Below are positions 1 to 14,026 of a stretch of 15,244 nucleotides of DNA, in pieces; the stretch's first letter is position 1, and each line of letters opens with the position of its first letter. The translations under genes were made by a program, and so were the position numbers. The notes beneath the pieces were generated by a model. That model did no database searches and was not told the origin of the DNA. It saw only the letters and a list, made by a program, of their open reading frames with translations. Origin of the DNA: a virus (taxonomy: Duplodnaviria; Heunggongvirae; Uroviricota; Caudoviricetes); IMG/VR virus record IMGVR_UViG_2695420523_000022; one strand, 5' to 3'.

Positions 1-165
1 ATGGCAAAGCCGATCATCACGCTCAATGGCCTAAAAATCGTCATTATGTTGGGAATGCTGGTCATTATTCTCTGCGGTATCCGTTTTGCCGCCGAGATCA
101 TCGTGCCGTTTATTCTCGCATTATTTATTGCTGTTATATATAACTTATTTCACATAATACGTTGA
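1..165 (+). pseudogene. tqsA: 5' fragment of a tqsA-like (AI-2 exporter, PerM/YdgG family) membrane protein gene, truncated by insertion of the element
   Basis: ATG at 1; translation [45 protein letters not shown] is a hydrophobic transmembrane N-terminus I recognise from memory as the TqsA/YdgG start. The frame then runs into AT-rich sequence and stops at 163-165 after 54 codons. Confidence 0.55.
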
Positions 166-211
166 TTTAATTAAATAATTTTCACCGCAAAAAGTGCCAA
201 AAATCGCAAAA

Positions 212-233
212 TGACTACACCAGTGACTACACC
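212..233. repeat. Direct repeat TGACTACACC x2 (212-221 and 224-233) close to the insertion junction; candidate integrase arm-type sites
   Basis: Two exact 10-bp copies with 12-bp start-to-start spacing, about 70 bp from the junction. Confidence 0.3.
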
Positions 234-250
234 GTTCGGTGCACTGTATG

Positions 251-280
251 AAACAACGTGGAACAAATAGACACAAGAAA
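251..280 (+). promoter_or_regulatory. Array of 10-bp-phased GAACAA-like pentamers (aAACAAcgtg gAACAAatag acACAAgaaa); candidate binding array
   Basis: The same 15-mer AACAACGTGGAACAA occurs at 7754-7768; unit and cgtg spacer also match the array at 13931-13980 on the other strand. Confidence 0.45.
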
Positions 281-495
281 TATACAGGCGGATCATCTTT
301 CCAGGGGGAAGCGCACCAATTCATGAGGGGCGTTAATGTCGATATGGGGATCCCCACCTACCGGAATTTTTTTCCGGTTAAACGTTAATCAGGCTGGTGG
401 GCTTTACCTGTTCGGTAGGTGTTATGATTATCGTAATACCTTTCCCCCAATGGGGTAAAAGCATCAACCGTAACGAAAGTCGTTATGGTTGCCAC

Positions 496-570
496 TGATA
501 CCCCAAATTTGGGTATCACGAGTAAGACCCAAAATCTGGGTGTTACTCTTACTACCCAAACTACGGGTAG
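496..570. repeat. Three palindromic sites of the form ACCC-N7-GGGT centred at 507, 534 and 561, exactly 27 bp apart
   Basis: TGATACCCCAAATTTGGGTATCA (496-518), ACCCAAAATCTGGGT (527-541), TACCCAAACTACGGGTA (553-569); the second is nested in a 7-bp outer stem AGTAAGA/TCTTACT. Confidence 0.5.
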
Positions 571-589
571 TTTCCGTAGTTTCATGGTC

Positions 590-609
590 GAGTTGCAGAT
601 CTGCAACTC
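590..609. repeat. 20-bp perfect palindrome GAGTTGCAGATCTGCAACTC
   Basis: Exact reverse-complement symmetry; no adjacent T-run on either strand, so not a canonical terminator. Confidence 0.5.
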
Positions 610-901
610 CCCCATTAACCACAGGCGAATTTCCGCCTTCGGTCATTCCTTAATCATCTGCGTAATCATAATGATTATTCAGCAAGCGCAATTTTGCGCT
701 TTGCTTAAAGTTCAGCGAGTTACCGCGCCGACTTCCTCAAATTGAGGTTTCCGAAATATCAGCGGGTTAGCGATTAAGCTGTTCATTAATTAAACTGCGA
801 AAATTTCGTAGTTTGTGACTGTCTTTCAGGCAGCTTGTTAACAGTCCTCAGAAGCGAGGGATGTAGCCACCCATTTTTGGTCCGTCGGGAATATCAACCA
901 G

Positions 902-1183
902 TTACCGCCGCAACCGCTCCGGCTTCTTCCAGTGGTACGTTATTTTCTCCTTCTCCCGATACATCTCCACGCGGCGACGGTAGGCCAGCAACTCAAGAAC
1001 TCTGGTTCGTATGTTGCGCATATCCACGCCATTAAGTTCTATACCATCACGGCGCATCACCTCAGCAACAACACGCGCATAGTTTTCGGCTGTCACGCTG
1101 TCCGGCTGCGTGGCCTGTTCGTCAGCCTGCTGGCTGATTCCGGCAACGCGGCGGATTAATCCCGTTATTTCGGCTTCTGTCAT
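902..1183 (-). CDS. Hypothetical protein (93 aa) co-transcribed downstream of terL
   Basis: ATG at 1183 preceded by GAGGT with 7-nt spacing, 13 nt after the terL stop; charged, non-repetitive translation; no family recognised. Confidence 0.45.
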   Translation of the reverse strand: MTEAEITGLIRRVAGISQQADEQATQPDSVTAENYARVVAEVMRRDGIELNGVDMRNIRTRVLELLAYRRRVEMYREKEKITYHWKKPERLRR

Positions 1184-1196
1184 GCTGCTGACCTCA

Positions 1197-2858
1197 TTAC
1201 ACCCCGCTAAATTCTTCCAGTTTCTGGCGGTGGCTGTCGCTTATATCAAAAGCAAAATCCTCATGCTCTGCCTGGAATGTACCAAACGCCATCAGCGCCG
1301 CCACGCTCGGGTCTATCTTGTTCGGTGATTTTTTCTTGTTCGGCTTGATATTGGCGTTCGCGTCACTCTGCATCACGACGTTACTCATCGACCAGGACAA
1401 CACCGGATCGCCACGATGCACAATCACCCTGCGGTTAACAAAAACTTCGAACGATTTCGCCGCCGGACTGAATCTGAGGTAGGTTTGCGGGAACGGCTCC
1501 ACCTCAAAACCTGCCCCCTGTAATTGCGTTCTGAGATGCGTGGCGTTCCACGTATCAAAGCCCACCAGCCTGATATTAAATTTCTCCGCGTCCTGCATGA
1601 TGTCATCTCTGATCCGGTCGTAATCAATGCAGTCGCCAGGCGTTGTGCGTATCCAGCCTGCTTTAGCCCACTGACGATAGATGGCGCGGTTTTTATTGGC
1701 GGGGTTCTGTAGCTGGAACTCCGGCAGATAATGACGGGAAACCAGCATAATGGTTTTACCGACCGGAAAGGCATAGCACACGCTGGAAATATCGCTTGTG
1801 GATGATAAATCCAGCCCCGCGTAACACTCCTGGCCGTGTAAATCTTCCTCCGTGAACGTTCCGGCACACTCAGCCCATGCGCCGTTACCCATCCACGGGG
1901 TAGTCCCCTGACACCAGATATTAAATCGCTTTGTCATCATCTCCACCCACTGCGACGGAATACCCCGCGCTTTCTGGATGGTTGAGGCCAGTTTTTCACG
2001 ATCCACGGAAACATCAATATTAGGGTTCGCCTTTATCCACATCGCCGGATCATCAACCTCGTTTTCGTCGTCCAGTTCGTAAATCAGTACAAAAATTGAA
2101 TCGTTGACCTCTTCGCCGTCCAGGATCTGGCAGCAATAATCATAGTGCTGCTTACAGGCTGAAACGACGTTACTGCCTGATGTGGTAATAGCAAATAACA
2201 GCCCTTCGGGACGTGCGCCCATCCCCAGCTCAAGCGCGGAATAAACGCCGTTATCGGGGTGCAAGTGGTATTCGTCCACGATGGCAAGACTCGGGTTTGT
2301 ACCTTCAATGGTTGCCGCTTTTGCTGCCAGCGGCTTTAACAGGCTGTTGCTTTTCGGGTGTATCACCTTATGCGCCTGAATATTCACCCGCCTGCGTAAC
2401 GGTCGGGATAAAAGGCACATCTGACGCGCATCATCAAAGACGATCCGCGCCTGGTCACGGCTCACCGCTGCGGTGTAAATATCCTGCTGACCGTTCTCCA
2501 TAATCAGAAACCAGTCAGCCAGAATCGCGGCGGTCGTGGATTTCGCATTTTTGCGCGGCACTTCGATAAAGGCGCTCGTGTATTTGCGCCGTCCGGTGGC
2601 CTTAACCTTAAAGCCGAGGATGCACGCAAAGGCGAACTGCTGCCACGGCTCCAGCTCAATGGGTCTGCCACGCATCGGCCCTTTTACGTGCGGGCACACC
2701 CTTGAAAAGGCAATAAACCGCTCCACAACCTCACGATCGAACGTGTAAAGGGGGCTTTTAAGGTCCGAAAAGTACCGTTTAACAGCCTGTTTTAACCGTT
2801 TACAGGCCGGAATTTTGCCCGTTTTTACGTCTTCTGCGTACTTATTCCAGGCGGTCAA
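1197..2858 (-). CDS. terL: Terminase large subunit (553 aa)
   Basis: Size and translation typical of a phage terminase ATPase/nuclease large subunit; TTG start at 2858 with strong SD (AAGAGGA, 5-nt spacer) and no in-frame ATG nearby; overlaps terS by 17 nt. Confidence 0.85.
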   Translation of the reverse strand: MTAWNKYAEDVKTGKIPACKRLKQAVKRYFSDLKSPLYTFDREVVERFIAFSRVCPHVKGPMRGRPIELEPWQQFAFACILGFKVKATGRRKYTSAFIEVPRKNAKSTTAAILADWFLIMENGQQDIYTAAVSRDQARIVFDDARQMCLLSRPLRRRVNIQAHKVIHPKSNSLLKPLAAKAATIEGTNPSLAIVDEYHLHPDNGVYSALELGMGARPEGLLFAITTSGSNVVSACKQHYDYCCQILDGEEVNDSIFVLIYELDDENEVDDPAMWIKANPNIDVSVDREKLASTIQKARGIPSQWVEMMTKRFNIWCQGTTPWMGNGAWAECAGTFTEEDLHGQECYAGLDLSSTSDISSVCYAFPVGKTIMLVSRHYLPEFQLQNPANKNRAIYRQWAKAGWIRTTPGDCIDYDRIRDDIMQDAEKFNIRLVGFDTWNATHLRTQLQGAGFEVEPFPQTYLRFSPAAKSFEVFVNRRVIVHRGDPVLSWSMSNVVMQSDANANIKPNKKKSPNKIDPSVAALMAFGTFQAEHEDFAFDISDSHRQKLEEFSGV

Positions 2859-3198
2859 GCTCGTCCTCTTCTTCTGTTTCCGGTGGATTTTTACGGCGGC
2901 TTACCGGGTCAAAACCGAGCAAGGAGGCCATTTTTATCATCACTCTTTCAGCGTCGGATTTTGCGCTTAATGCGGGGTTTCTGCTCTCGCCGCCCTGACT
3001 GTTAACAATGCTGAACCCGCGTGCCGCAAGGTCTGCGACGGCTTTCCGGTATATCGAGTAATTGACGCAATACAGTTCCAGATTACTCCAGTCGGCGGGG
3101 GTAAGGTCTCCCCGTTCCGCAAGCTGCCGCGATTTTTCCCGCCACTGCTTCACGGCGATATCATCCAGGTAGGCGGGGGCTTTCGGTGGTCTTGCCAT
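2842..3198 (-). CDS. terS: Terminase small subunit, P27 family (118 aa)
   Basis: N-terminus MARPPKAPAYLDD and overall composition match the P27-family small terminase as I recall it; immediately upstream of terL. Confidence 0.75.
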   Translation of the reverse strand: MARPPKAPAYLDDIAVKQWREKSRQLAERGDLTPADWSNLELYCVNYSIYRKAVADLAARGFSIVNSQGGESRNPALSAKSDAERVMIKMASLLGFDPVSRRKNPPETEEEDELDRLE

Positions 3199-3321
3199 GC
3201 TTATTTTTTCGCCAGATTATTTTTCAAAAAATTCCCGTGCATAAAAATTTGAGGAGGCGTTCGGTGCCCGGCGGGGTCGGGTTTGTCCTGAAAACGCCCC
3301 CCACCCCGTCATACAGCCTCA

Positions 3322-3504
3322 TCAGCGATTGCGGAAACATTCCATAACCTCGCGGTCACGGTCGGTTAATCGCTTCGCTGTGATGCGTTCTGCGCGTCCT
3401 GACGCTTTATCTTTATGCCCTGTTTCCTGTGTCTTCCATGCGTCACGCTGCCTTATAAGTCCACGGATAAGGCGTTTTTGTTCCCGCTCATTCATCAGCG
3501 TCAT
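3322..3504 (-). CDS. Possible small basic protein (60 aa) between HNH and terS; uncertain
   Basis: ATG at 3504 gives MTLMNEREQKRLIRGLIRQRDAWK, overlapping the HNH stop by 17 nt; weak SD; could be a spurious frame. Confidence 0.25.
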   Translation of the reverse strand: MTLMNEREQKRLIRGLIRQRDAWKTQETGHKDKASGRAERITAKRLTDRDREVMECFRNR

Positions 3505-3928
3505 ACATCCAGTTATTGCGGTTAGCGGCCCGTTCTTCCTCTTCACGAAATCCACCTGCGGCACGCTTGCTTTTTGTTGCTGGATCAAGCCACTTCGTTT
3601 TCTGGTTATGACACGCCTGGCACAATGGCTGATGGTTCCATTCGGGCCAGAAGAGAACATCATCACCGCCATTAATCGGGATAATGTGATCCACCACCAC
3701 GGCGGGCGTATATATCCCCTTCTCAAGGCATCGCACGCATAACGGGTTTTTACTCAGATACATGGCGCGGTATTTTTCCCACTGTCTGGAGTACCCACGC
3801 GCGCGGCGGTGTCCTCGTCTGGCATCCTCTGCACGCCATGCCGCCCGCCTGTGCTCCTCACACTTGCCGGACTTAACGCGCCTGTTACAGCCTGGTTCTG
3901 TACATCGTCTTAATGGTTGCCACGGCAT
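3488..3928 (-). CDS. HNH endonuclease (146 aa), packaging-associated
   Basis: Cys pairs (CTEPGC, CEEH, CVRC, CQACH) plus DHIIP and NHQPLC motifs typical of HNH; placed directly before terS/terL as in HK97-like phages; ATG overlaps the connector stop. Confidence 0.8.
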   Translation of the reverse strand: MPWQPLRRCTEPGCNRRVKSGKCEEHRRAAWRAEDARRGHRRARGYSRQWEKYRAMYLSKNPLCVRCLEKGIYTPAVVVDHIIPINGGDDVLFWPEWNHQPLCQACHNQKTKWLDPATKSKRAAGGFREEEERAANRNNWMYDADE

Positions 3929-4224
3929 CAGTACACCCCCACATCACGGTAAGCCGTCCAGAGCGCGCCAATCGTCATGGGTACGCGCGTTTTTGCGTTA
4001 TCCGCTACCAGCTGGCGATTCTCGTACAGGTGAGCGATAAACATCATGCAGCCAATCTTTATGGCTGGCGTGAACTCCAGCCCGTCATCAAAGCGCCTGC
4101 CTATATGTATCTGGCACGCCTCAAGCGATGCGGCAATGTATCCGCTGATTAACTGGTCTTCCTCGTCGCCATCGATGCGGCAATGGAGTTTCACTTCTTC
4201 CAGGGTGATAAGTTCTTCTGTCAT
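3928..4224 (-). CDS. Head-tail connector protein, gp6-like (98 aa)
   Basis: MTEELITLEEVKLHCRIDGDEEDQLISGYIAAS matches the gp6-like connector N-terminal pattern; position between head closure and HNH. Confidence 0.65.
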   Translation of the reverse strand: MTEELITLEEVKLHCRIDGDEEDQLISGYIAASLEACQIHIGRRFDDGLEFTPAIKIGCMMFIAHLYENRQLVADNAKTRVPMTIGALWTAYRDVGVY

Positions 4225-4559
4225 TTTTCCGCGCCCTCACGACAAAGAATTTCAAGGCGTGTCCTGGCGGCATCCGGCAGCGGTTGCCCGATGATATTCA
4301 GTACACGCCCCGCCAGCGGCCCCGTATTGACCTTTATCCGGCTGGTGGCGTTGATGTCCTTCCGGTACCGTATCCAGATCCTTACGGTACCAATCGCCAG
4401 CTCTGCACCCGATGAAATGGCCTCCTTGCTGCTGATCATGTTCACGCTTGCCCAGAGTGTGTGACCGTCCTCCCACGTTTCGAGTATTTCGCCGGTTATA
4501 TCCCTGGTCTGTTTCAGGGTCTGAATCGTTACCCTGTCACGCAGTCGCCCTATGTTCAT
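4221..4559 (-). CDS. Head closure / head-tail adaptor protein (112 aa from ATG at 4559)
   Basis: RDRVTIQ...WASV...IRYRKDI...RI pattern typical of the head-tail joining family; ATG at 4559 overlaps the portal stop; the track ORF extends to 4601 but has no better start. Confidence 0.65.
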   Translation of the reverse strand: MNIGRLRDRVTIQTLKQTRDITGEILETWEDGHTLWASVNMISSKEAISSGAELAIGTVRIWIRYRKDINATSRIKVNTGPLAGRVLNIIGQPLPDAARTRLEILCREGAEK

Positions 4560-5767
4560 TCCGGTTTTTCTCCCTCGCTGATTTTTACTTCCTGTTTCCA
4601 TGCCTGGCTGAACTCATCACCACCATCACGCGGGGACAGCCCTTCACGTTCGCGGGCTTCGTTCGGGCACATAACGCCGGATTTGATGCCGCGTTCATAG
4701 GTGGCAAAGCGTTCGCCAGGTGTGGCCCGTAACAGGTCCGCGCTGTCAAACTCCACCTGATACCGGATACCAGGTACAGGCGAGGCCACCAGCAGGGCGT
4801 TTTTTATCTGCTGCTCAAAGTTCGCCAGCCACGGGCGCATTGTCATGGTGAGAAATGCGCGGCTTGCCTCGCTGAAATTGCTGTAGGTGCTGTTGCTGTA
4901 TTCCTGCAGAAAAATCGGCGAGACGTTGAACATTCGGGCGATGTCTTCAATGGTGAAGCGACGGGAGGCCAGCCATTCAGCATCCTGATTACTCATGCCC
5001 AGCTGCTGATAGCTCATACCCCCTTCAAGAATGGGCGTTTTTCCGGCGTTTCTGGCTCCTTTGTAGCGTTCCAGTGCGGCTAATGCCTGTTTGCCCTTCA
5101 CGCCGTCCAGCCATTCGCCTGACGTGATAACCCCTGCCGCCATCATGCCATCACGCATCACGCTCGCGCCGTGGCGTTGTTGGGCCAGCCCAAGCCCCAG
5201 CGATTCGCGGCAGATGGTTACAGGTGAGCGCCCCATAAAACCGTCATCCGTGGAGTAACGAAGGTGGAGAACCTCCCACGGTAAATAGTTGCGGGTGTTT
5301 CCGGTGTAGGCGTCAGTGATGCAGTAGCGCCAGTTATGCTCACCTGTCTGCTCAACGTTCACCGACTGCGGCGGGTAAGGATGTAAAGCCACCGGAAAAC
5401 CATCACGCCCCCACTGAATCACCGCATAAGCATTACCGTTTAACAGGCAGTGGCGGATCATCATTCGCTTAAACTGGTAGGGAGTCTGCCACGCGTTCGG
5501 GCGCTCGTTGAGGATGTGATCGACCGGATGAGAATCAAGCCACTCGCGGGCCTCCTTCCCCTTCTCATTGCGTACCAGGTACAGGTAACACGGCATGGTA
5601 GCCACCGCCTCAGAGATGACCGTCACGGCGTTCATGACGGCGGGCAGTGATTCCGCTGTCCCCGATGATACGTACTCACCCGCCCCCGTGTTCGATGTGC
5701 CAGCCAGCGCCATAAATTCATCAAGCGTCATGCTGCGCTGCTCTTTTTTTCTTCTGAAAAGCCACAT
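4556..5767 (-). CDS. Portal protein, HK97 family (403 aa)
   Basis: Size, composition and position between prohead protease and head closure; ATG at 5767 is 1 nt after the protease stop. Confidence 0.8.
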   Translation of the reverse strand: MWLFRRKKEQRSMTLDEFMALAGTSNTGAGEYVSSGTAESLPAVMNAVTVISEAVATMPCYLYLVRNEKGKEAREWLDSHPVDHILNERPNAWQTPYQFKRMMIRHCLLNGNAYAVIQWGRDGFPVALHPYPPQSVNVEQTGEHNWRYCITDAYTGNTRNYLPWEVLHLRYSTDDGFMGRSPVTICRESLGLGLAQQRHGASVMRDGMMAAGVITSGEWLDGVKGKQALAALERYKGARNAGKTPILEGGMSYQQLGMSNQDAEWLASRRFTIEDIARMFNVSPIFLQEYSNSTYSNFSEASRAFLTMTMRPWLANFEQQIKNALLVASPVPGIRYQVEFDSADLLRATPGERFATYERGIKSGVMCPNEAREREGLSPRDGGDEFSQAWKQEVKISEGEKPE

Positions 5768-5768
5768 A

Positions 5769-6341
5769 TCACACCCCCGCTAAATCCACCCACCAGCGGC
5801 GATTATCCGCACGCGGCATTTTTTCTGGGTGCTGCTCATACAGGGAACGGCGGGCCAGCTCCACGCCGGAATCGGGGTAAGCCGGTACCGATGTAACGGT
5901 AATTTCGTACAGTTCCGCCACCAGCACGGTGCGCACGCATGGATCTGTTGTGGTATCCCATACATCCTTACGGGAGCGAAAGCCAAAGCTCATCCCCGAG
6001 ATGTCCCCACGCTTAACCAGTTCGATAACGTCGCGCCCTGTACTGGTATCCGGTGGGGTCAGTTCAAAGCGTAACCCTGTTTCGTCCTCTTCCAGTTTCA
6101 GCGTGCCGGAACGGGTACGCCCCAGCAACATGCTGTGGTCATGCTCATACAGGCCGCGAACGTCATTACCCACCGCAAGCCATTCAGTAAACGCTCCCCG
6201 CTGGAATTTTTCGTAAAACTCCCCCCATAGCAGCTCTGAAAGCTTATCCCAGCGAACAACGTAGCCTGTAAGCGTGTTGCTGGCGCTGGTGGTGATTTCC
6301 GATGACCGGATTTCCATACTCTTCATAATTTTTTCACCCAT
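5769..6341 (-). CDS. Prohead maturation protease, HK97 family (about 185-190 aa)
   Basis: Translation typical of the HK97 prohead protease; lies between capsid and portal; start ambiguous among ATGs at 6341, 6326 and 6317. Confidence 0.75.
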   Translation of the reverse strand: MGEKIMKSMEIRSSEITTSASNTLTGYVVRWDKLSELLWGEFYEKFQRGAFTEWLAVGNDVRGLYEHDHSMLLGRTRSGTLKLEEDETGLRFELTPPDTSTGRDVIELVKRGDISGMSFGFRSRKDVWDTTTDPCVRTVLVAELYEITVTSVPAYPDSGVELARRSLYEQHPEKMPRADNRRWWVDLAGV

Positions 6342-6370
6342 AAAACACTAAAGGGGCTTTTAAGCCCCTT
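6342..6370 (-). terminator. GC-rich hairpin plus U-rich tract between the capsid and protease genes; probable partial terminator or attenuator
   Basis: Minus strand reads AAGGGGCTT-AA-AAGCCCCTT followed by TAGTGTTTTATG, 10 nt after the capsid stop. Confidence 0.5.
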
Positions 6371-6380
6371 CTGTATGCTG

Positions 6381-7538
6381 TTAATCGTCGTCCTGTGGCA
6401 GTTCCAGAATCTTGATCGCGTTCGAATCCACCACGCCACCGCCTAAATATTTCTGCGTGAAAATTTTGATGAAGCCCGGCTCTGTGAGGTTGTCCGGTCT
6501 GGTGCGAACACCTGTTTCGTGATCAACAATGTAGTAACCGCGTTTGAAGTCACCCAGGGCAATAACGTTATCAGGCATAAACTCCAGATATTCGACCGGA
6601 AGGCCCAGCAACGTATCAGGATCACCCGCCTGTAAACGGTCGCGCCAGATGTAATCACCGTTCGCGTTCTTCACCTTCTGAAGTTTTGCCGCCGTCGTGG
6701 AGTTAACCACCCAGACCGCGTTTTTGCGGTATTTTTTACGTAATGCAAATTTCAGGTCGATCAGCGGGTCAGCAGATGTCCACGCCAGAGATTCGGAAGG
6801 TTTAATTACCTGTAACGTACCAAAATCACGCTCTTTGTCGTTCTTCTCTGCACGGGGTACGGATAAAAAGCCTTTTGCTTTTTTGTCACCGTCGCCCACA
6901 ACCAGATCGCTTTCTTCGGTTTCCGTGAAGGTGTCGCCAATCTCACCCGTCAGCCATGAAAGGATGTCCACATCGGAAAAATCCACGATTTCCTGTGTGG
7001 TGCGCGGGTACGCATAGACCGGATACAGCTTAATGCTCACCTCGTTAATCTGCGGGGTGCTGGTCTGTTCGCGTGTCTTACCCTCTTCACCGTGGTTAAC
7101 GGTCGCACCGCCAGCGGAAACAAGCTGCTTAAACTCGTTGCTGCTGATTTTCTTCACGGTACAGATGCGGCGCATGGTGGATTCATCCGTCAGCATTCGC
7201 ATGATTTCGGTGTTCAGTTCGGGGATAACGGTATAACCACCATCAGCGGGAACGCCTGTACTTAATGCGCGGGTTTCACCTGTCAGGATGTAGTTGCGGA
7301 GTTCTGCCGGGTCAGTGGTCTGGCTGCTTTTACCTGGCTTGCTGCGCTCTTCGTCTGCAATGGCTTCAAGGCGGGAAATGTCTTTATCGAGGGATTCAGC
7401 TTTAGCGCGTAATTCGTCAAATTTTGCGCCCTCAGCATCGTTAAGACTGCGGTTTTCTTTTTCCGCGTTCTCCAGCATGTCGCGCATCTGATTTTTAATG
7501 GCGGTTTTCTGCTGGCGTAATTCGATTATTCTCGGCAT
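6381..7538 (-). CDS. Major capsid protein, HK97 fold (385 aa) with N-terminal coiled-coil delta/scaffold domain
   Basis: N-terminal 100 aa are charged and helical (ELRQQKTAIKNQMRDMLENAEKENR...), as in HK97-type capsid delta domains; C-terminal part resembles HK97-family capsids; followed by protease and portal. Confidence 0.85.
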   Translation of the reverse strand: MPRIIELRQQKTAIKNQMRDMLENAEKENRSLNDAEGAKFDELRAKAESLDKDISRLEAIADEERSKPGKSSQTTDPAELRNYILTGETRALSTGVPADGGYTVIPELNTEIMRMLTDESTMRRICTVKKISSNEFKQLVSAGGATVNHGEEGKTREQTSTPQINEVSIKLYPVYAYPRTTQEIVDFSDVDILSWLTGEIGDTFTETEESDLVVGDGDKKAKGFLSVPRAEKNDKERDFGTLQVIKPSESLAWTSADPLIDLKFALRKKYRKNAVWVVNSTTAAKLQKVKNANGDYIWRDRLQAGDPDTLLGLPVEYLEFMPDNVIALGDFKRGYYIVDHETGVRTRPDNLTEPGFIKIFTQKYLGGGVVDSNAIKILELPQDDD

Positions 7539-7575
7539 AAAAAAAGTCCTGGGGTTAAGTAAGGAACTCCAGGAC
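7539..7575 (-). promoter_or_regulatory. Terminator-like hairpin with U7 tract directly abutting the capsid ATG; stem contains the only SD-like AGGA
   Basis: Minus strand: GTCCTGGAGTT-CCTTACTT-AACCCCAGGAC-TTTTTTT-ATG (stem 7 bp + mismatch + 3 bp). Confidence 0.5.
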
Positions 7576-7752
7576 GCGGCAAAAACTCAACCGTTTTTCA
7601 TAAGGAAATCAGCAATCGCACCGATCGTTTTCCCGCCTGGTAATGAATATTGGCGAGAACATTAACAGGCGGAAAAGTGGCCCCAGCGTCCTGGCACCAC
7701 GGGCGAGAATAATCATGATTCAGTTCGGGTAAAATATGCCGATCCTGTCAGT

Positions 7753-7782
7753 GAACAACGTGGAACAACCACGAACAAATAA
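7753..7782 (+). promoter_or_regulatory. Three GAACAA pentamers at exact 10-bp phasing (gAACAAcgtg gAACAAccac gAACAAataa), about 215 bp upstream of the capsid start
   Basis: Direct reading; shares the 15-mer AACAACGTGGAACAA with 252-266 and the unit with 13931-13980. Confidence 0.5.
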
Positions 7783-7790
7783 TTTACAAA

Positions 7791-7819
7791 AAATGACAAA
7801 AAGCCGGATTGCTCCGGCT
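7791..7819 (-). terminator. Rho-independent terminator after the 74-aa ORF
   Basis: Minus strand: GCCGGAGCAATCCGGC followed by TTTTTGTCATTTTTT, 11 nt after the stop at 7830. Confidence 0.75.
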
Positions 7820-7829
7820 GTATGCGTGC

Positions 7830-8054
7830 TCAGTCCCTGATCCCTTTCAGAAATTCTATCAATGCATCTATCTGTTCAGGATTTACCGCCAGCATTTCAC
7901 CGGACAGAGCACATCTCACAAAACCATGCTGATCCTTTTCAATCAGTGCGCCCGTCTCCAGGAATGCGCGGTAATCATTGATGCTCATCGTCTCCATGTT
8001 GTCAGCATGGTATTTATCACGCTGTTTTAATATCTCATCAAATTTCATCGGCAT
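7830..8054 (-). CDS. Hypothetical protein (74 aa), moron-like with its own terminator
   Basis: ATG at 8054 (MPMKFDEILKQRDKYHADN...) with SD AGAGGA at 7-nt spacing; flanked by terminators on both sides. Confidence 0.5.
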   Translation of the reverse strand: MPMKFDEILKQRDKYHADNMETMSINDYRAFLETGALIEKDQHGFVRCALSGEMLAVNPEQIDALIEFLKGIRD

Positions 8055-8149
8055 TGTTTTTTCCTCTGTTGTGTCTGTTTGTTTCAGATAGTAACTATGC
8101 CTGACCGTGACGAAAACCCGGTAATGCGCCATACCGTTTCAACTGGTGC

Positions 8150-8173
8150 AAAAAAAGCCGGATTTCTCCGGCT
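8150..8173 (-). terminator. Rho-independent terminator after the PerC-like gene
   Basis: Minus strand: AGCCGGAGAAATCCGGCT followed by TTTTTTT, 5 nt after the stop at 8179; near-identical to the 7791-7819 terminator. Confidence 0.8.
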
Positions 8174-8178
8174 GTTGA

Positions 8179-8451
8179 TTAGCTGTCTGGGTAATTACGC
8201 CATATTTCATCGCTTACACCATCTATACCCATTTCAGCATAAGTGCGATCTACTGCCTTTCTCAGGTCTCCGAAGTTATCCGGCGGCTCCGGTGGCTTCT
8301 GTGCCTTCCTGGAACATTCCAGCCGTCGCATCGTAACCTGATGCCGTTCCTTGTCTGTCTCCACCAGCAGCATGACTTCACCCCATCGCGCCGCCGCCCT
8401 CCGGTAAAAGCCTTTCGCCTCGAGTTCTTCCGCTATGCGGTCATGTACCAT
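8179..8451 (-). CDS. PerC-family-like small transcriptional regulator (90 aa); family assignment tentative
   Basis: ATG at 8451 with SD GAGGGGG at 5-nt spacing; motif AEELEAKGFYRRAAARWGEVM resembles the PerC/Pch motif as I recall it; the track ORF from 8571 lacks a credible start. Confidence 0.45.
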   Translation of the reverse strand: MVHDRIAEELEAKGFYRRAAARWGEVMLLVETDKERHQVTMRRLECSRKAQKPPEPPDNFGDLRKAVDRTYAEMGIDGVSDEIWRNYPDS

Positions 8452-8461
8452 CGCCACCCCC

Positions 8462-8872
8462 TCAGAACGGAATACCGTCACCGTAAGGGTCATCGCCTCC
8501 CGCTGGTGGCTGATTACCCTGTGTGCCTGTGGTTTTGCGTCTGTTCCCGCCAGGACGTGCCGCACGGACACTGATTACGCTGTCTGCAATAACCTGATAA
8601 CCCTGCCGCGTTTCCCCGTTCTGTCCGGTCCACTGGCTGACCTGCATCGTGCCGGATACGCTGGCAACGTCGCCTTTTTGATGTTTAGCCAGGAAGTCGG
8701 CCTGCTTACCAAATGCGATGACCGATAGCCATAACGTCGCCTGCCCATCCTGCGCCTGACTACATGGCAACGATACCGCCATACGCGCCAGCGTCATCGG
8801 TGTGCCCTTACTGGTCTGTTTTACCTGCGGGTCGTCCACCAGCCGCCCGTAAGCCGCTATCTGTGCTGTCAT
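8462..8872 (-). CDS. ssb: Single-stranded DNA-binding protein (136 aa)
   Basis: OB-fold-like N-terminus, Gly/Gln-rich linker and acidic C-terminal tail ending DDPYGDGIPF, the canonical SSB tail type; ATG overlaps the upstream stop. Confidence 0.75.
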   Translation of the reverse strand: MTAQIAAYGRLVDDPQVKQTSKGTPMTLARMAVSLPCSQAQDGQATLWLSVIAFGKQADFLAKHQKGDVASVSGTMQVSQWTGQNGETRQGYQVIADSVISVRAARPGGNRRKTTGTQGNQPPAGGDDPYGDGIPF

Positions 8873-9120
8873 GATTCCACCTCTCCGGTTTTAACGTTGA
8901 TGGTTGTTACCTGTTCTGCTTCTGCGATCTCCCGTTCTGTCAGCGTGGCAAAGTTTGCCGCTGCTGTGGTCATGAATGCGCTTATCAGGTCGGGATGTTC
9001 CTTCGCGTATCCTTCCCGCGTGTGGCGGTCTATCGTTCTGATTGCCACCTTTAAGGTGTGCTCAGTCATGTCTAACGCTTTATATTTTGGCTCTGTTCTG
9101 TCTCTGCGTTTTTGGGTCAT
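8869..9120 (-). CDS. Hypothetical protein (83 aa) between the origin and ssb
   Basis: ATG at 9120 (MTQKRRDRTEPKYK...); stop overlaps the ssb ATG; no family recognised. Confidence 0.4.
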   Translation of the reverse strand: MTQKRRDRTEPKYKALDMTEHTLKVAIRTIDRHTREGYAKEHPDLISAFMTTAAANFATLTEREIAEAEQVTTINVKTGEVES

Positions 9121-9131
9121 TTCTCGCAACC

Positions 9132-9323
9132 TCTCACTTTTTCGCCTCACTTTTTCAAGCGTCTCACTTCGTCGCAGTTGGGATTTTCGGTTTTTCTATG
9201 TGTGTGTTTCATAAGTATTTTTTTACCCCTCACTTTTGAGGATGTATACAGGTCGAAAAGTGAGGGAGAGCGGGCTAATTTTGGCCCTCTTTCTATCCCC
9301 CTCGCTTTTGCTCCTCACTTTTA
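9132..9323. repeat. Iteron-type replication origin: at least 5 direct copies and 1 inverted copy of CCTCACTTTT around an AT-rich tract
   Basis: CTCACTT at 9133, 9146, 9163, 9229, 9314; inverted copy AAAAGTGAGG at 9257-9266; degenerate CTCGCTT at 9301; AT-rich 9181-9228; lies directly 3' of the replication gene. Confidence 0.65.
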
Positions 9324-10721
9324 TAGCGGCGCTACATCATCCCCATCGATACGAATAACCCCATCTTTTTCCAGCTTGTACAGCCAGCGCCGGAAGTTTT
9401 TCATTTCATACCCCAGCTTTTTCATGTCATCACGTAACAGCGGGATCGTGCACTTGTCGCCGTTCTGTGTGCGTGAACGGATGCACCCCCATAGCGCGGT
9501 ATGGTTTTCCGTCTTGTTCCCTGCCTCCTCGATGCGCTCCAGTTCAACAGGAGGGCGCGGATCATCCACCACCACCAGCGACGTGATTAATTCACCGTCA
9601 GCGTCGGTAAAAAGCTCCACCACGCGTAAGTCATATGCGGCTTCTTTGAGTTCCTCCGCGTCCTTCATTTTGGTGCATGAGATAACCAGCGCTTCGCTTC
9701 CTGCGTCCTCCCTGCGTATCCGGTATTCAGCATCCAGCGAAGCACGAAATGCACTGGAACCGCGCGCGCCTTTCGTCTCATCCTTGCCGGAATGGTGAAC
9801 CACCAGCACCGTGGCCCCTGTGCGTCGTTTCAGTTCGTCACAACCACGGATAAACGCCCCCATATCACGGGAATCATTTTCATCATTCCCACCAAAGCAA
9901 CGCGCCAGCGTATCCAGAATAATCATGCGTACAGGTTTACCCGTTTCCCGCTCCACCTGACGGGCAGCGATAACCATTTCATCAACATCAAGCGGGGCAG
10001 CCGGAAAGATGGGGCGGTTTACCAGATACAGATTTTTCACCTGCTCATCGTGCACAACCTCCCAGGCTTTTACACGACGCGGAACACCTATACCGCCTTC
10101 ACCAACCACATAGAGAACCGCACCATGTGCAACCCTGCGGCCTCCCCACTGGCGACCAGTGGCAACATGGCACGCCCACGATCCGGCAAGGAATGATTTA
10201 TAGGACCCGCTAGCCCCGTATATGCTGCATAGCGATACCGCCGGAATAATCCCCTTAACCACGTAATCCAGTTGCGTGTCGTATCCGGTAGATCCAACGC
10301 TCATCGGTAGCGTGGTTTTTCGCTGGTGGTTTTTTTCTTCCACCGGCTCTTTCCCGCGCACCCGTTCCAGGTATTCGCGCCAGTTCTCCCGCATATGGCT
10401 GTGCATCCCTTCGGGGTAATAATTCGCATCAGTTACACCCGCCGCCGCCAGCTTGTGCGCAATGGCATTAATATTTGATGGCCTGATGTGGCCTGCCTTG
10501 TACAGCCGGACACAATAGCGCCCCTCGTCGATGATTCTCAGGTCTGCCAGTTCATCCAGTTGATCATCAGCCAGCACAACGGGAGGCACATTATCGCCAG
10601 CCAGTCGCCCGTCCTGTTCCTGCCACTGTTTCGCATGTGCCCACGCATCACTACCCGCAAAAATGATGACTTCGGTCATCTTGTCGTAAGGCTGTTTTTT
10701 TAAGTTCGGTGCGCTTTTCAT
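9321..10721 (-). CDS. Replication initiator / RepA-like RecA-fold ATPase, the satellite pri-rep equivalent (466 aa)
   Basis: Walker A-like GASGSYKS, downstream hydrophobic strand then D (MIILDTLARCFGG) and VLVVHHSGKD, typical of RepA/AAA_25-type replicative ATPases; iterons immediately downstream. Confidence 0.7.
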   Translation of the reverse strand: MKSAPNLKKQPYDKMTEVIIFAGSDAWAHAKQWQEQDGRLAGDNVPPVVLADDQLDELADLRIIDEGRYCVRLYKAGHIRPSNINAIAHKLAAAGVTDANYYPEGMHSHMRENWREYLERVRGKEPVEEKNHQRKTTLPMSVGSTGYDTQLDYVVKGIIPAVSLCSIYGASGSYKSFLAGSWACHVATGRQWGGRRVAHGAVLYVVGEGGIGVPRRVKAWEVVHDEQVKNLYLVNRPIFPAAPLDVDEMVIAARQVERETGKPVRMIILDTLARCFGGNDENDSRDMGAFIRGCDELKRRTGATVLVVHHSGKDETKGARGSSAFRASLDAEYRIRREDAGSEALVISCTKMKDAEELKEAAYDLRVVELFTDADGELITSLVVVDDPRPPVELERIEEAGNKTENHTALWGCIRSRTQNGDKCTIPLLRDDMKKLGYEMKNFRRWLYKLEKDGVIRIDGDDVAPL

Positions 10722-11017
10722 TTCTTGCCCCTGAATACGTTAAGCATCTTTTTTATTTCCTGAATATTGGCGCGTGCTTTCTCCCTGCTGGTTGGTTTAC
10801 TGCGGGGCGCTGCCTGTACCAGAGAAAAATCACGCCGGAACTGATAAACAGGCATCACGCAGTCATATTCGTAGCCTTCACGGCGGTAGGTAATGCGTCG
10901 CTCTTCTACACCTTTAATCGTTACGGTGCCGCCGTACTGGTCGCGGTAAATATCGCCGCGCGTAAATTTAGGGTGAGTGTTGCCACTGGCAGTTAAGCCA
11001 GAATATTTAAGTTTCAT
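10718..11017 (-). CDS. Hypothetical protein (99 aa), translationally coupled to the replication gene
   Basis: ATG at 11017 with SD GGAGAA; stop overlaps the downstream ATG (ATGA). Confidence 0.5.
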   Translation of the reverse strand: MKLKYSGLTASGNTHPKFTRGDIYRDQYGGTVTIKGVEERRITYRREGYEYDCVMPVYQFRRDFSLVQAAPRSKPTSREKARANIQEIKKMLNVFRGKK

Positions 11018-11022
11018 TATTT

Positions 11023-11256
11023 TTATTCTCCGGTGTGCTGTTCTTTATATCTGTCGTGCAATATATCTATTTCTTGCAGTTCCATTATTACAGGCTCAAG
11101 AAGCGTTATTAATGCCGTGGCAATTCTTGATTTTTGTTTGTCGCGTTCATTGTCGCCAAGTGTTTCAAGCCATATGCGTAATATTTCCAGCATGTTTTCA
11201 CTGTGAGAAAGTGCAAGAAATGCGCGGTCTATTGTTTCAAGGTAAATATCACGCAT
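11023..11256 (-). CDS. Hypothetical protein (77 aa)
   Basis: ATG at 11256, 1 nt after the upstream stop; MRDIYLETIDRAFLALSHSENMLEILRIWLETLGDNERD; no family recognised. Confidence 0.45.
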   Translation of the reverse strand: MRDIYLETIDRAFLALSHSENMLEILRIWLETLGDNERDKQKSRIATALITLLEPVIMELQEIDILHDRYKEQHTGE

Positions 11257-11257
11257 A

Positions 11258-11836
11258 TTAATCCCCGTCCGTCGTTTTTCTTAAAATAACCTCTGTCACG
11301 AAATCAGCATAATCGGCGACGATATTCAGTACATCAAGCCCCGTTGATTTATATTCTCTCGTGGAAAGTAAGAAAAAAGCCGCTCTAATAAGCTCTGGCA
11401 TTGACGAAAGCGCATCAGCCGCATCATCAGGAACGCCGGAAAATTCCTGTTTCAGGGAATTAAAACGATCATCACGCATGTTTACCCCCTGAATGACCTG
11501 ATAACCGCAACTGGTCAACAACTCGATAAATTCCGGCAGTGTGCCGAAACAGCAATCATCACGCAGCCGTTCGCAGGATACCTCGACGCCGTTTTCGTAG
11601 TGACTCACCATACATCCGGTAAAATGCAGATCATCATCGTGATGGCTCGTTGACGGCTTAATCAGTCGCGCACGTTCCGCCAGTTCCAGCAATGCTTCAA
11701 CGCTTCCGGCAATTGCACCATCCGGCAGGTGATAATTACGCACTATGCGCCCGTTCTCCACATTGACCAGCAACTGCCCGGTAAATTTCTCGTCAAACTG
11801 AATGCTGTTAAGGTCAGAAATTGACAGGTTATGCAT
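11258..11836 (-). CDS. Hypothetical protein (192 aa), largest unknown in the accessory operon
   Basis: ATG at 11836 (MHNLSISDL...) with strong SD AGGAGG at 6-nt spacing; the track start at 11854 has no SD; no motif recognised. Confidence 0.55.
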   Translation of the reverse strand: MHNLSISDLNSIQFDEKFTGQLLVNVENGRIVRNYHLPDGAIAGSVEALLELAERARLIKPSTSHHDDDLHFTGCMVSHYENGVEVSCERLRDDCCFGTLPEFIELLTSCGYQVIQGVNMRDDRFNSLKQEFSGVPDDAADALSSMPELIRAAFFLLSTREYKSTGLDVLNIVADYADFVTEVILRKTTDGD

Positions 11837-12053
11837 GGTGCACCTCCTGCACATCAGCCATGATAATTTTTCCGGCCTTATCCAGTGCCTGATCGGCTTT
11901 TAGCTGCACAAATGTTAAATAATGGAAGATGCATTCTGATTCTCTGGCTGCGTGTTTATGCGCCCTGTCAGCAATAACAGAAATATCAATAAGCGCGTGC
12001 ATCAGCGTAGTGAGCGCGGCGGCGGCTGCGTCCGGTGTGGTTTTATTGCACAT
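11829..12053 (-). CDS. Hypothetical protein (74 aa)
   Basis: ATG at 12053 with SD GGAGGGG; overlaps the upstream gene by 11 nt and the downstream start by 8 nt. Confidence 0.45.
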   Translation of the reverse strand: MCNKTTPDAAAAALTTLMHALIDISVIADRAHKHAARESECIFHYLTFVQLKADQALDKAGKIIMADVQEVHHA

Positions 12054-12273
12054 GTACCCCTCCGCATTTTTTTTCGTTAGAAATAAGCGTTCTTCTTTCC
12101 TGTTCATCGCTCAGGAATACGCAGACCTCACCGCTAAGGCGTTTAAGTAAGCCGATGATTGCCCCTGATTCGCTGTCGGTCATCATGCCAGGGTAATCCT
12201 CTGCCAGTGCGCAAATAACTTCGATTTGGTGGGCGCGTTCTGCTGCCTGTTGTAGTGTGATTTCCTGGCTCAT
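12043..12273 (-). CDS. Hypothetical protein (76 aa)
   Basis: ATG at 12273 overlapping the upstream stop (ATGA); SD AGGGGG 8 nt upstream. Confidence 0.45.
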   Translation of the reverse strand: MSQEITLQQAAERAHQIEVICALAEDYPGMMTDSESGAIIGLLKRLSGEVCVFLSDEQERRTLISNEKKCGGVHVQ

Positions 12274-12470
12274 AAGCCTACCCCCTGACGAATACGGGCA
12301 GCAAATACCATCACGCAGCCAGCCGGAGATTGCTGGCGTGCTTCCTGTTCGCTGGTGGCCTCAATGGTAATCACGCGCGGTTGTGCCGTGCTCAGGGCGA
12401 TAAAACGCCAGATGTATTTATTCAGGTTGTGCGAGTCCCGCCCTTGCGGGTGTATGGTATAATTTCTCAT
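12270..12470 (-). CDS. Small protein (66 aa), first gene of the leftward operon; possibly Icd-like (P4-type host cell division inhibitor family), tentative
   Basis: ATG at 12470 with SD GAGG at 5-nt spacing; MRNYTIHPQGRD...IWRFIALSTAQPRVITIEATSEQEARQQSPAGCVMVFAARIRQG resembles Icd-like satellite proteins as I recall them. Confidence 0.4.
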   Translation of the reverse strand: MRNYTIHPQGRDSHNLNKYIWRFIALSTAQPRVITIEATSEQEARQQSPAGCVMVFAARIRQGVGL

Positions 12471-12567
12471 AGCTGCCTCGATACTGTTGCTATCGTTGGT
12501 GGTTAGACGCCCTGCATGTGTTGCGAGCACTGCGGGGCGTTGCTTAATTTGAGTAACAAAACTCAAA

Positions 12568-12648
12568 CTGTGCGCACAGATTAAAATCATGTGTGCGCAC
12601 ATGTCAATACTTAACATCTCATTTTTTTTACTGTATTGTGTGCGCCCA
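12568..12648. promoter_or_regulatory. Divergent promoter region with three TGTGCGCACA-type operators (12569-12578, 12592-12601, imperfect 12639-12648)
   Basis: Leftward promoter: -35 TTGACA (revcomp of 12602-12607), 16-nt spacer, -10 TTTAAT (revcomp of 12580-12585); one operator fills the spacer, one sits at the predicted start site. Rightward promoter: -35 TTAACA 12611-12616, -10 TATTGT 12634-12639, overlapped by the third operator. Confidence 0.6.
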
Positions 12649-12675
12649 TAAAGTCCATTTAAGTGAGGTGCATCA

Positions 12676-12873
12676 ATGTCTAGCGGTAACAAAAACAACA
12701 AATCAGCAAAGAAAAATATTCGATTCCCACATGAGCTTATAGATGGGATTGATGCCAGCGTTGAACAAGAAAAATTAACTAATCCTAGTGCTAATTTTTC
12801 CGCATGGGTCTTAGATGCCTGTGGACGCAAATTAAAATATGAACAGCGCCGGAAGGCCAAAGAATCAGAATAA
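12676..12873 (+). CDS. YlcI/YnfO-family (DUF3950) small protein, likely ribbon-helix-helix DNA binder (65 aa); candidate island repressor
   Basis: NIRFPHELIDGIDASV...NFSAWVLDACGRKL matches the YlcI pattern (NIRFP...NFSAWVIEACRRRL) as I recall it; SD GTGAGGTG 6 nt upstream; divergent from the operator-bearing promoter. Confidence 0.65.
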   Translation: MSSGNKNNKSAKKNIRFPHELIDGIDASVEQEKLTNPSANFSAWVLDACGRKLKYEQRRKAKESE

Positions 12874-12930
12874 TCACTATCAGCGCCGTGGTGTGAGGAA
12901 CTACGGCGCATTTCTTTACAGGAGTAGACA

Positions 12931-13116
12931 ATGAACAACGAAGAATTACGGGAAATCGCATTATCCATACTTGAAAGACAGGTAGAAAAAAAATTAAGAG
13001 AAATGGATGAAATGCCTGACCATGAACAGGAAGCAAGGCCAAAAAGATTTGCCCTTGAGGATTTTCTTAAAAATTGCCCAAGAAAGATGAGATCGTGGCG
13101 TTGTTGTCCGCCCTGA
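12931..13116 (+). CDS. Hypothetical protein (61 aa) downstream of the ylcI-like gene
   Basis: ATG at 12931 with strong SD AGGAG at 6-nt spacing; MNNEELREIALSILERQVEKKLREMDE... Confidence 0.5.
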   Translation: MNNEELREIALSILERQVEKKLREMDEMPDHEQEARPKRFALEDFLKNCPRKMRSWRCCPP

Positions 13117-13288
13117 TGACAGATTTGCCAACCAGCCAAAAATGTGGCATCGTTGTCGATGCATAGTGTAATCAACATGTATATCATATTTTTGCCTGTA
13201 ATCCGGCAATTGTGGCGCTTCTTCACACAGTTGATATAATTCCAATGCTCATATTTATTTTTTGTGCAGCAGGTTAATCGTTCACAAA

Positions 13289-13318
13289 GGCGCTCAGGTA
13301 ACTGGGCGCTTTTTGTTA
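13289..13318 (+). terminator. Rho-independent terminator between the convergent alpA and ylcI-like transcripts (probably bidirectional)
   Basis: GGCGCTCAG-GTAA-CTGGGCGCT (9-bp stem with two G-U pairs) followed by TTTTTGTT; CCTTTGTG on the other strand. Confidence 0.6.
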
Positions 13319-13463
13319 TGCCTGAAAAACCCCAATTTTGTTGTTTTTCAGTTTCACCAGGGCGAACGAATCCCCGCCCACGTTCTGGCGTATATTCAAT
13401 CTTCATGGTTATAGCTCTGTGTTCAGATGATTGATGTGTGGCGGCTGCGTGCCGCCAGCGTGA

Positions 13464-13652
13464 TTAATGAACTGCCTTGCAGCTATCCTTCCAGGCCAGA
13501 ACCTCGGATAAAGACCAGCCAACGGAACGACCGCCAAGTTTACGACGTGATGGGAATTGTCCGGCCTTTTCCAGGCGGTAGCGGCATGAGCGGCTAAGGC
13601 CTGTTAGCTTTTCGCATTCTTTTTCACGTATAAACCGATCAGTGCTTAACAC
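13464..13652 (-). CDS. alpA: AlpA-family phage regulatory protein / excisionase-like wHTH (62 aa)
   Basis: LTGLSRSCRYRLEKAGQFPSRRKLGGRSVGWSLSEVLAW is the AlpA signature; GTG start at 13652 with SD AAGGGGG at 5-nt spacing. Confidence 0.8.
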   Translation of the reverse strand: MLSTDRFIREKECEKLTGLSRSCRYRLEKAGQFPSRRKLGGRSVGWSLSEVLAWKDSCKAVH

Positions 13653-13930
13653 TATTGCCCCCTTTCGTTTCTTAAAGAGTTATTTCGTGTTCTATTGCGT
13701 TGGGATGTGTCTGATTGTGTCAGGATGATTCAGAGTTGGCAAATGTTGAGGCCGCATGGTTTACAGAAAGAGGAATAATCAGGATAAAATCATTTAAATT
13801 CATGTTAATACAAAGGCATAAAATATTGTTTCATGCCTTTTTTCTCGCTATTTAAAGAGTGATTCGCTAGTGTATAAAAAACCAGTAACACATTAAAAAT
13901 CAGCTACTTATAAATCTGTACACTTTTTCG

Positions 13931-13980
13931 CCTCTTGTTCGTAGTTGTTCCGCATTGTTGCTCATTGTTGCACGTTGTAT
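13931..13980 (-). promoter_or_regulatory. Five tandem 10-bp units each containing TTGTT (GAACAA on the minus strand) between int and alpA
   Basis: cctcTTGTTC gtagTTGTTC cgcaTTGTTG ctcaTTGTTG cacgTTGTAT; same unit and cgtg spacer as the arrays at 251-280 and 7753-7782. Confidence 0.55.
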
Positions 13981-13993
13981 CTGTTCGCATATC

Positions 13994-14009
13994 CAGTATG
14001 CGCATACTG
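13994..14009. promoter_or_regulatory. 16-bp perfect palindrome CAGTATGCGCATACTG, 18 bp beyond the int stop; candidate protein-binding site
   Basis: Exact dyad symmetry; no flanking U-tract on the int strand, so not a canonical terminator. Confidence 0.4.
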
Positions 14010-14026
14010 AAAAAATACGAAAAAAA

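Follow-up and report, generated by a model that had tools for sequence, protein, structure and literature searches.

The DNA described here (the window) is a stretch of 15,244 nucleotides held as IMG/VR record IMGVR_UViG_2695420523_000022. Apart from a flank of Escherichia coli tqsA, it is a capsid-forming phage-inducible chromosomal island (cf-PICI; PICI, phage-inducible chromosomal island) inserted in that gene. Arrays of 10-bp units built on an ACAA core (motif 2) are found on an arm of its attachment site (att), upstream of its capsid operon and between its integrase gene (int) and alpA. That one island-encoded protein reads all of them is the interpretation best supported by the sequences of related islands. 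AlpA is the best candidate reader: it probably acts both as an excision factor, i.e. a recombination directionality factor (RDF), and as an activator of transcription, like Apl, Cox, Vis and TorI, its binding being deduced from sequence comparison. The architecture is the familiar dual-purpose RDF design; its recognition in PICI and cf-PICI satellites is new, and here it extends to a capsid operon.

An earlier note on this DNA had listed three arrays, of 3, 3 and 5 units (the last on the opposite strand). Their coordinates (Table 1) and exact 10-bp phasing were confirmed, and the places given to them (element end, capsid operon upstream region, int-alpA intergenic region) are correct. The first belongs to an att arm of the island, since the match to tqsA ends at 137; the second lies between a terminator and the capsid gene; the third lies between the int stop codon (14027) and alpA (13652). 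A 15-mer (AACAACGTGGAACAA), also announced in that note, is indeed common to 252-266 and 7754-7768. The unit had been described as GAACAA plus 4 nt, often cgtg. Its 10-bp length stands; the hexamer has to be relaxed, exact GAACAA being present in 6 of the 11 units (invariant core, ACAA; consensus, rAACAA), and the spacer cgtg is found in only 3 of the 11. Read along transcription (minus strand), the units of the capsid array are TTGTTC.

Single GAACAA words are not enriched in the window (14 matches; 10.1 expected). Phased words are: RAACAAN4RAACAA with at most one mismatch gives 7 matches against 0.58 expected, a number reached in 0 of 200 shuffles, and ACAAN6ACAAN6ACAA gives 5 against 0.01 expected, all 5 within the three named loci. 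The arrays are confined to att arms and to the heads of transcription units.

Each att arm carries a second repeat, a tandem pair of 12-bp words (motif 1, GTGACTACACC). Pairs of the form (A/G)TGACTACACC occur at 210-233 in the window and at 16556-16579 in L001, the near-identical locus annotated in RefSeq, and nowhere else in the island. On each arm an ACAA array starts exactly 17 bp past the motif 1 pair; the array on the other arm, a fourth one, lies beyond the window. The two arm modules are direct duplicates of ~70 bp in the same orientation, and on the int-proximal arm the array sits between the motif 1 pair and the core. The 251-280 array is identical in the O157 island and in classical PICIs integrated at other sites.

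These features distinguish the two motifs. Integrase arm-type sites are confined to the arms on both sides of the core; the motif 1 pairs are, the ACAA arrays are not. In P4, the elements annotated as 'attP arm sequence repeats' form two similarly oriented tandem pairs of 12-bp words (TGGGGGCAT-type), one immediately upstream of the int start and one across the core. Motif 1 has this geometry, whereas the ACAA arrays have a 10-bp period and 3-6 units. Because of this match to the P4 arm repeats, the motif 1 pairs are better candidates for integrase (Int) arm-type sites than the motif 2 arrays. The arrays have the features of RDF sites: at least three head-to-tail repeats one helix turn (10-11 bp) apart (3, 3 and 5 units), placement in the att arm next to candidate integrase arm-type sites (both arms), and a cognate gene for a small winged-helix RDF (alpA, 62 aa, PF05930). 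Those of a dual-purpose RDF regulon, with repeats at att and at distant promoters, are also found (arms, alpA, capsid operon).

Weaker sites accompany the main ones. A degenerate array lies close to alpA (proximal array; Table 1), and O157-type islands have GAACAAtacg ACACAAtaag ACACC at this position. A two-copy site just upstream of a 74-aa open reading frame (ORF; start 8054) is possibly a weak site of the motif 2 kind.

The int-alpA array was compared in 18 distinct versions taken from IMG/VR and RefSeq relatives. They form two lineages, of 5 and 6 units; the 6-unit lineage includes EcCICFT073. The arrays are present in relatives, and the conserved 10-bp phasing that the earlier note had proposed to look for was found, 5 or 6 phased units being kept throughout. 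Columns of the ACAA core are polymorphic in 3 of 44 cases, each variant confined to one array version, against 29 of 66 for the other columns, where 24 of the variants occur in several arrays (Fisher p = 0.014 for one lineage and 0.0009 for the other). The extraction demanded AACAA-like units, which biases the unit logo and has little effect on this within-homologue comparison of columns. In one island the copy number has changed by the gain of one unit, exactly 10 bp. Purifying selection on the ACAA cores is evident in these alignments: cores and 10-bp phase are conserved, spacers drift.

The arrays might instead have no protein partner: they could be left over from duplication of att-arm DNA, or their phased sequence could simply curve the DNA. 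The duplicated arm modules are in keeping with this, and the 15-mer common to arm and capsid region could reflect copying. Selection that separates cores from spacers, a copy-number change that keeps the phase, a register kept in other genera despite a complete change of word (below) and the precise placement of arrays after terminators all make this explanation very improbable.

A scan with the capsid protein (one genome per species) gave cf-PICI relatives in Shigella, Rosenbergiella, Citrobacter, Erwinia and Gilliamella. The capsid gene of the Rosenbergiella, Citrobacter and Erwinia islands (protein 66-74% identical) is preceded by a conserved block (TTTTGTAAATT) and, after this block, by three 10-bp units. 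They occupy the same alignment columns as the E. coli array, the word (G/T)TAC(C/T)C replacing TTGTTC. In the Citrobacter and Erwinia islands Int is different (474-476 aa), and where AlpA would be encoded there is an HTH_17 protein (68-73 aa) with a helix-turn-helix (HTH); the Rosenbergiella contig stops before the int/HTH region. In the Erwinia island, TACYY-N5-TACYY gives 5 matches against 0.24 expected (2 on the int-proximal arm, 2 upstream of the capsid gene, 1 on the far arm). Four AAGTACTTAAC repeats with a 21-bp spacing precede the HTH gene, and the arm-only repeat also differs (GGTATCC pairs). Since the word is switched at all four Erwinia places, one island-encoded protein would read all the sites; neither a host factor nor mere DNA curvature explains this switch.

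A reader other than AlpA or Int has nevertheless to be considered: a host nucleoid protein or response regulator, a helper-phage protein (e.g. the inducer of alpA) or an unrecognised island protein. Helper phages induce alpA via a factor acting on the int-alpA region, and the distance of the distal array from the predicted alpA promoter suits an upstream element. Regulators of the OmpR/PhoB type bind direct repeats of 10-11 bp. Such a reader is improbable: the word changes between closely related enterobacterial hosts at the capsid array, and at all four places in Erwinia; cf-PICIs are reported to be induced by several lysogenic strains; an att-arm location suits a recombination protein; and the only proteins that go with the arrays in all the islands examined are Int and a small HTH protein. 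Three particular candidates were rejected. Rep iterons: the same arrays occur with three unrelated initiators (RepA-helicase, DUF927 and P4-primase types), and Rep has its own AAAAGTGAGG repeats (9151-9320). PerC or the 74-aa ORF product: arrays are present in islands that lack them. A host response regulator (a CpxR-like GTAAA-N5-GTAAA can be seen by eye in the Erwinia array): judged unlikely, as the word changes with the island.

The choice between AlpA and Int relies on how each motif varies. The AlpA protein search gave 19 clusters, and the IMG/VR scan mostly close relatives. Among E. coli islands, an Int N-terminus with LSVKYLTSGKL (K-Y-L) goes with the pair (A/G)TGACTACACC, and one with LSVRHSTSGLL (R-H-S; pair ATTAACTACACC) goes with ATT(A/G)ACTACACC; AlpA and the ACAA arrays are unchanged across both variants. 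In more distant islands (AlpA 55-68% identical), the pairs are GTGTAGTCAG, GTGTGGTCAG, GTGTATCAC and TGGTCCAAA, in step with divergent Int N-termini. Phased arrays of the TGTT(C/T) type lie beside the pair in all of them, and the wing RRKLGGRxVGW of AlpA is usually retained (RRQLSDNAIGW in the high-GC contig L010). As the motif 1 pair varies with the Int N-terminus and the arrays persist with the helix and wing of AlpA, AlpA rather than Int would be the reader of the arrays.

According to the competing explanation, Int binds the arrays as arm-type sites through its N-terminal domain. It would then be located downstream of its own gene and before the capsid operon too, serving as a regulator or being kept there in reserve, and something else would bind the GTGACTACACC pairs. 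Int does have an Arm-DNA-bind_3 domain; the arrays lie on either side of the core, an arrangement typical of arm-type sites and unusual for RDF sites; and Int and the motif changed together in Erwinia-type islands. Three tandem 10-bp units also resemble the P'1-P'3 sites of lambda. This explanation is unlikely. In geometry the 12-bp pairs are a far closer match to the P4 arm repeats, and they track the Int N-terminus, which the arrays do not; arm-type sites have no known role at distant promoters; an array of 5 or 6 units suits an RDF filament; and the known regulator of the alpA promoter (PalpA) is AlpA, not Int. The proposal of the earlier note, that one island protein, most simply AlpA, couples excision with expression of the capsid operon, is the one best supported by the comparative evidence (word switch, AlpA/Int covariation) and appears rather likely.

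In L005, an island with unrelated Int and AlpA, TGGTT occurs four times in 10-bp phase (13003-13040) immediately downstream of int, the position of the distal array; the word was not found on the L005 arms. At the far end of two classical PICIs, near the last gene (L005 4557-4592; L007 ~5270-5320), four (T)GTCAC units in 10-bp phase are present. They are possibly related to packaging.

RDFs generally bind direct repeats one helix turn apart, and for Apl, Cox and Vis this holds both for att and for promoters far away. Among the closest known parallels are Apl of phage 186 and Cox of P2 and WPhi, small HTH proteins with 5-7 direct repeats, spaced by the helix turn, at att and repeats of the same type at distant promoters, to which they bind cooperatively and head to tail. 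They differ in belonging to another sequence family (the island protein is of the AlpA family, PF05930) and in mainly repressing lysogenic and lytic promoters; in the island, arrays are present on both att arms and one precedes the capsid/packaging operon, where activation is expected.

TorI of KplE1 (CPS-53), which acts with IntS, is an RDF of the AlpA/Xis type and about as large as the island protein. The sites that it binds share a GTTCG-type core and form blocks, including blocks of three sites 2 nt apart, which gives a 10-bp phase; they lie next to Int arm-type sites and the int promoter. As in the island, int and the RDF gene are transcribed separately and expression of the RDF is the switch. 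Unlike the island arrays, TorI sites are described on attL only, the transcriptional effect is repression of intS, and no sites at structural-gene promoters are known; AlpA of EcCICFT073, for its part, has no effect on the int promoter (Pint).

P4 has an integrase of the same family, and its attP pairs have the geometry of motif 1; phased TCC(G) words lie between its core and the int-proximal arm pair. The annotation of its Vis protein reads 'excisionase and transcriptional regulator', and a requirement for Vis in excision is cited. In contrast to the island, P4 has no capsid genes, and Vis is only remotely related to PICI AlpA. Vis acts negatively on P4 late transcription.

The characterised PICI AlpA systems compared are those of EcCICFT073, EcCIEDL933, EcCIMP1 and PICMI115. 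AlpA of EcCICFT073, which differs from that of the window at 3 of 62 residues, activates PalpA (positive autoregulation), not Pint, and is required for excision, replication and transfer; the array of this island has 6 units. Mutation of alpA prevents the induction of a cf-PICI. In PICMI (PICMI115), AlpA acts as an excision factor. The literature is split, AlpA of Gram-negative satellites being either a transcriptional activator (EcCICFT073) or an excision factor (PICMI). The arrays provide a concrete, mutable site map, which predicts that AlpA does both jobs. In the papers retrieved by full-text search and consulted, neither AlpA binding sites nor the control of cf-PICI capsid genes was found described; the arrays would be such sites.

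AlpA of Pseudomonas aeruginosa shares with the island protein its name, an HTH and positive control of lysis/late-type genes (proposed in the island), and terminators are present in the island too. It is a much larger protein, a Q-like antiterminator that binds as a single molecule to one GGGACG element between -35 and -10 (contact residues 128-142, to H142), its N-terminal part threading into the RNA exit channel. Antitermination of this kind was rejected for the island, whose AlpA has 62 aa and no exit-channel part, and whose putative sites are multi-copy arrays.

Near-identical strong minus-strand terminators lie at 8156-8173 and 7802-7819. Each is followed by a motif 2-type site, 72 bp past the first (8065-8084) and 20 bp past the second (7753-7782). 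No sigma-70-type promoter was predicted by a consensus scan between the 7753-7782 array and the capsid start codon. TTTACC-16-TATTCT is a candidate weak capsid promoter, which would put the three units near -60 to -90 (alignment inspected by eye). For alpA, the only decent prediction of the scan is TTGCCA (13742-13737), a 17-nt spacer and CACAAT (13719-13714).

The following sequence of events is proposed. A helper phage would switch on alpA, as it does in related PICIs. AlpA would bind the phased ACAA units cooperatively and head to tail. It would fill the arrays upstream of alpA, which would be the site of the positive autoregulation known in EcCICFT073. It would also fill the arrays located 17 bp from the candidate Int arm-site pairs on both arms, cooperate there with Int bound to the adjacent 12-bp pairs and bend the DNA, so that Int, made constitutively, would excise the island. 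On the three-unit array past the terminator, AlpA would recruit RNA polymerase to a capsid promoter that has no usable consensus. Capsid and packaging genes would then fire only after induction of the island. Activation of the capsid operon by AlpA through 7753-7782 is what we infer from this layout.

Several observations weigh against this scheme. The proximal alpA array overlaps the -10 of the predicted alpA promoter and the distal one lies ~210-260 bp upstream of that promoter, positions that may look more like looping or (dose-dependent) repression than simple activation. With respect to transcription, the capsid array and the alpA arrays point in opposite directions. The replication operon of the island is not preceded by an array. 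Classical PICIs with the same AlpA carry none before their packaging genes (different control region), so that control of late genes by AlpA is not general. The arrays occupy both att arms, whereas RDF sites normally occupy one. The preference for AlpA over Int is correlative: it is based on few lineages, and in these a change in one of the two proteins usually comes with a change in the other. Lastly, the Gilliamella island L017 (AlpA 45% identical) has no clear shared array, although pairs (TTTAGTTATACG) are present on its arms and some of its CAAAC words are in phase.

A bolder scheme, which is doubtful, unites the arm, alpA (two arrays 210 bp apart) and capsid arrays in one AlpA nucleoprotein switch. 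Arm filaments on the excised circle would also block re-integration, and excision would be coupled, physically or kinetically, to the firing of an otherwise dead capsid promoter; or else the arrays would belong to the arm-binding domain of the integrase. If the switch exists, an RDF is the late-gene activator of a virus-like element; if the arrays are read by the arm-binding domain of Int, an integrase is a direct regulator of capsid genes. For annotation, a 12-bp arm-site pair followed by a 10-bp array is a cheap signature of the att arms and regulatory targets of PICI-like islands.

Table 1. Features of the island. Positions are those of the window unless L001 is given; +, forward strand; -, reverse strand.
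Feature	Position	Strand	Description
att core	129..137	+	TGCTGTTAT; attL-side copy at the tqsA/island junction
Motif 1 pair	210..233	+	Tandem 12-bp pair of GTGACTACACC; copies AATGACTACACC AGTGACTACACC
Motif 2 array, P' arm	251..280	+	3 units: AAACAAcgtg GAACAAatag ACACAAgaaa
Packaging operon	1197..7538	-	Major capsid protein (6381-7538), protease, portal, head-tail adaptors (two), HNH, TerS, TerL
Motif 2 array, upstream of capsid operon (capsid array)	7753..7782	+	3 units: GAACAAcgtg GAACAAccac GAACAAataa
Intrinsic terminator	7802..7819	-	AGCCGGAGCAATCCGGCT then T run; ends 20 bp before the capsid array; insulates the capsid operon from upstream transcription
Two-copy site	8065..8084	-	AAACAAacag ACACAAcaga
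alpA	13464..13652	-	62-aa winged-helix protein; PF05930, E = 5e-18
Motif 2 proximal array, degenerate	13682..13721	-	GACACAatca GACACAtccc AACGCAatag AACACGaaat
Motif 2 distal array, int stop to alpA	13931..13980	-	5 units: ATACAAcgtg CAACAAtgag CAACAAtgcg GAACAActac GAACAAgagg
int	14027..15244	-	P4-type tyrosine integrase; N-terminal Arm-DNA-bind_3, then Phage_integrase; annotated start 12 nt past the window end
Motif 2 array, other att arm (fourth array)	L001 16597-16626, beyond window		CTACAAcgtg AAACAAgctg GAACAAggaa; between the int start and the second core copy
Other genes		-	Icd-like and small ORFs, DUF4222, RepA/AAA_25 helicase, SSB, PerC, 74-100-aa ORF

Positions 1-137 of the window are the 5' part of E. 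coli tqsA, and the match to uninterrupted chromosomes stops at 137. The second copy of the att core is at 16708-16716 of L001, directly before the resumed tqsA and 176 bp upstream of the int start codon. The island has the characters of a cf-PICI: an int-alpA-rep module; genes of its own for capsid, protease, portal, adaptors, HNH, TerS and TerL; neither tail nor lysis genes; a size of ~15 kb; and a specific att site (tqsA). The packaging operon was delimited from ORFs and from the RefSeq annotation of L001. The main island genes are all on the minus strand. The O157:H7 island, also located in tqsA, is 96.5% identical across 74% of the window length and agrees with the published description of EcCIEDL933. 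Island AlpA is related to the solved AlpA-family structure 8c3t and consists of an HTH and a wing only. A scan of the window against Rfam gave no matches.

Integrases ~90% identical to that of the window, with identical arm arrays, are encoded by L003, L006 and L013, which are inserted at different chromosomal sites (phoQ-roxA and others, vs tqsA). Core-site specificity has therefore changed while the arm architecture has stayed.

Between the RepA-type helicase gene and its neighbour, at 9151-9320, there are four copies of AAAAGTGAGG in both orientations. This cluster is probably the replication origin of the island, with iterons distinct from the ACAA arrays. The Rosenbergiella contig (L014) has iteron-like TCTACC repeats on both strands at 2912-3146, upstream of ssb; they are probably an origin, and their word resembles, without being identical to, the TTACCC of the capsid array.

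The leader of the capsid operon contains a hairpin with a GACG loop (GTGGTGCCAG-GACG-CTGGGGCCAC; ~7683-7706, minus strand). The Rosenbergiella, Citrobacter and Erwinia islands have a GACG-loop hairpin in the same place with a different stem (GTGGCACTCA...TGAGCCGCCAC), and it may be a conserved 5' RNA structure. A terminator-like hairpin at 6350-6371 (minus strand), between the major capsid and protease genes, would favour the capsid transcript over the downstream genes.

The int-alpA region includes further elements. A perfect 16-bp palindrome (CAGTATGCGCATACTG; 13995-14010) lies between the int stop codon and the distal array. Islands of the tqsA type keep it and those of the CFT073 type lack it. 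A dimeric protein might use it as an operator, and it is possibly where the helper-phage inducer acts. The word ACTCTTTAA (minus strand) follows both alpA arrays (13670-13681 and ~13850-13862) and is conserved across lineages; in P4, vis is preceded by three 'ori type 2 repeats' of 10 bp that contain CTTTAA. Two small plus-strand genes (12676-12873 and 12931-13116; YlcI/YnfO family and hypothetical) converge on alpA, and a hairpin with a T run at ~13817-13850, upstream of alpA, would terminate plus-strand transcripts. Antisense transcription across alpA may help to keep this gene silent.

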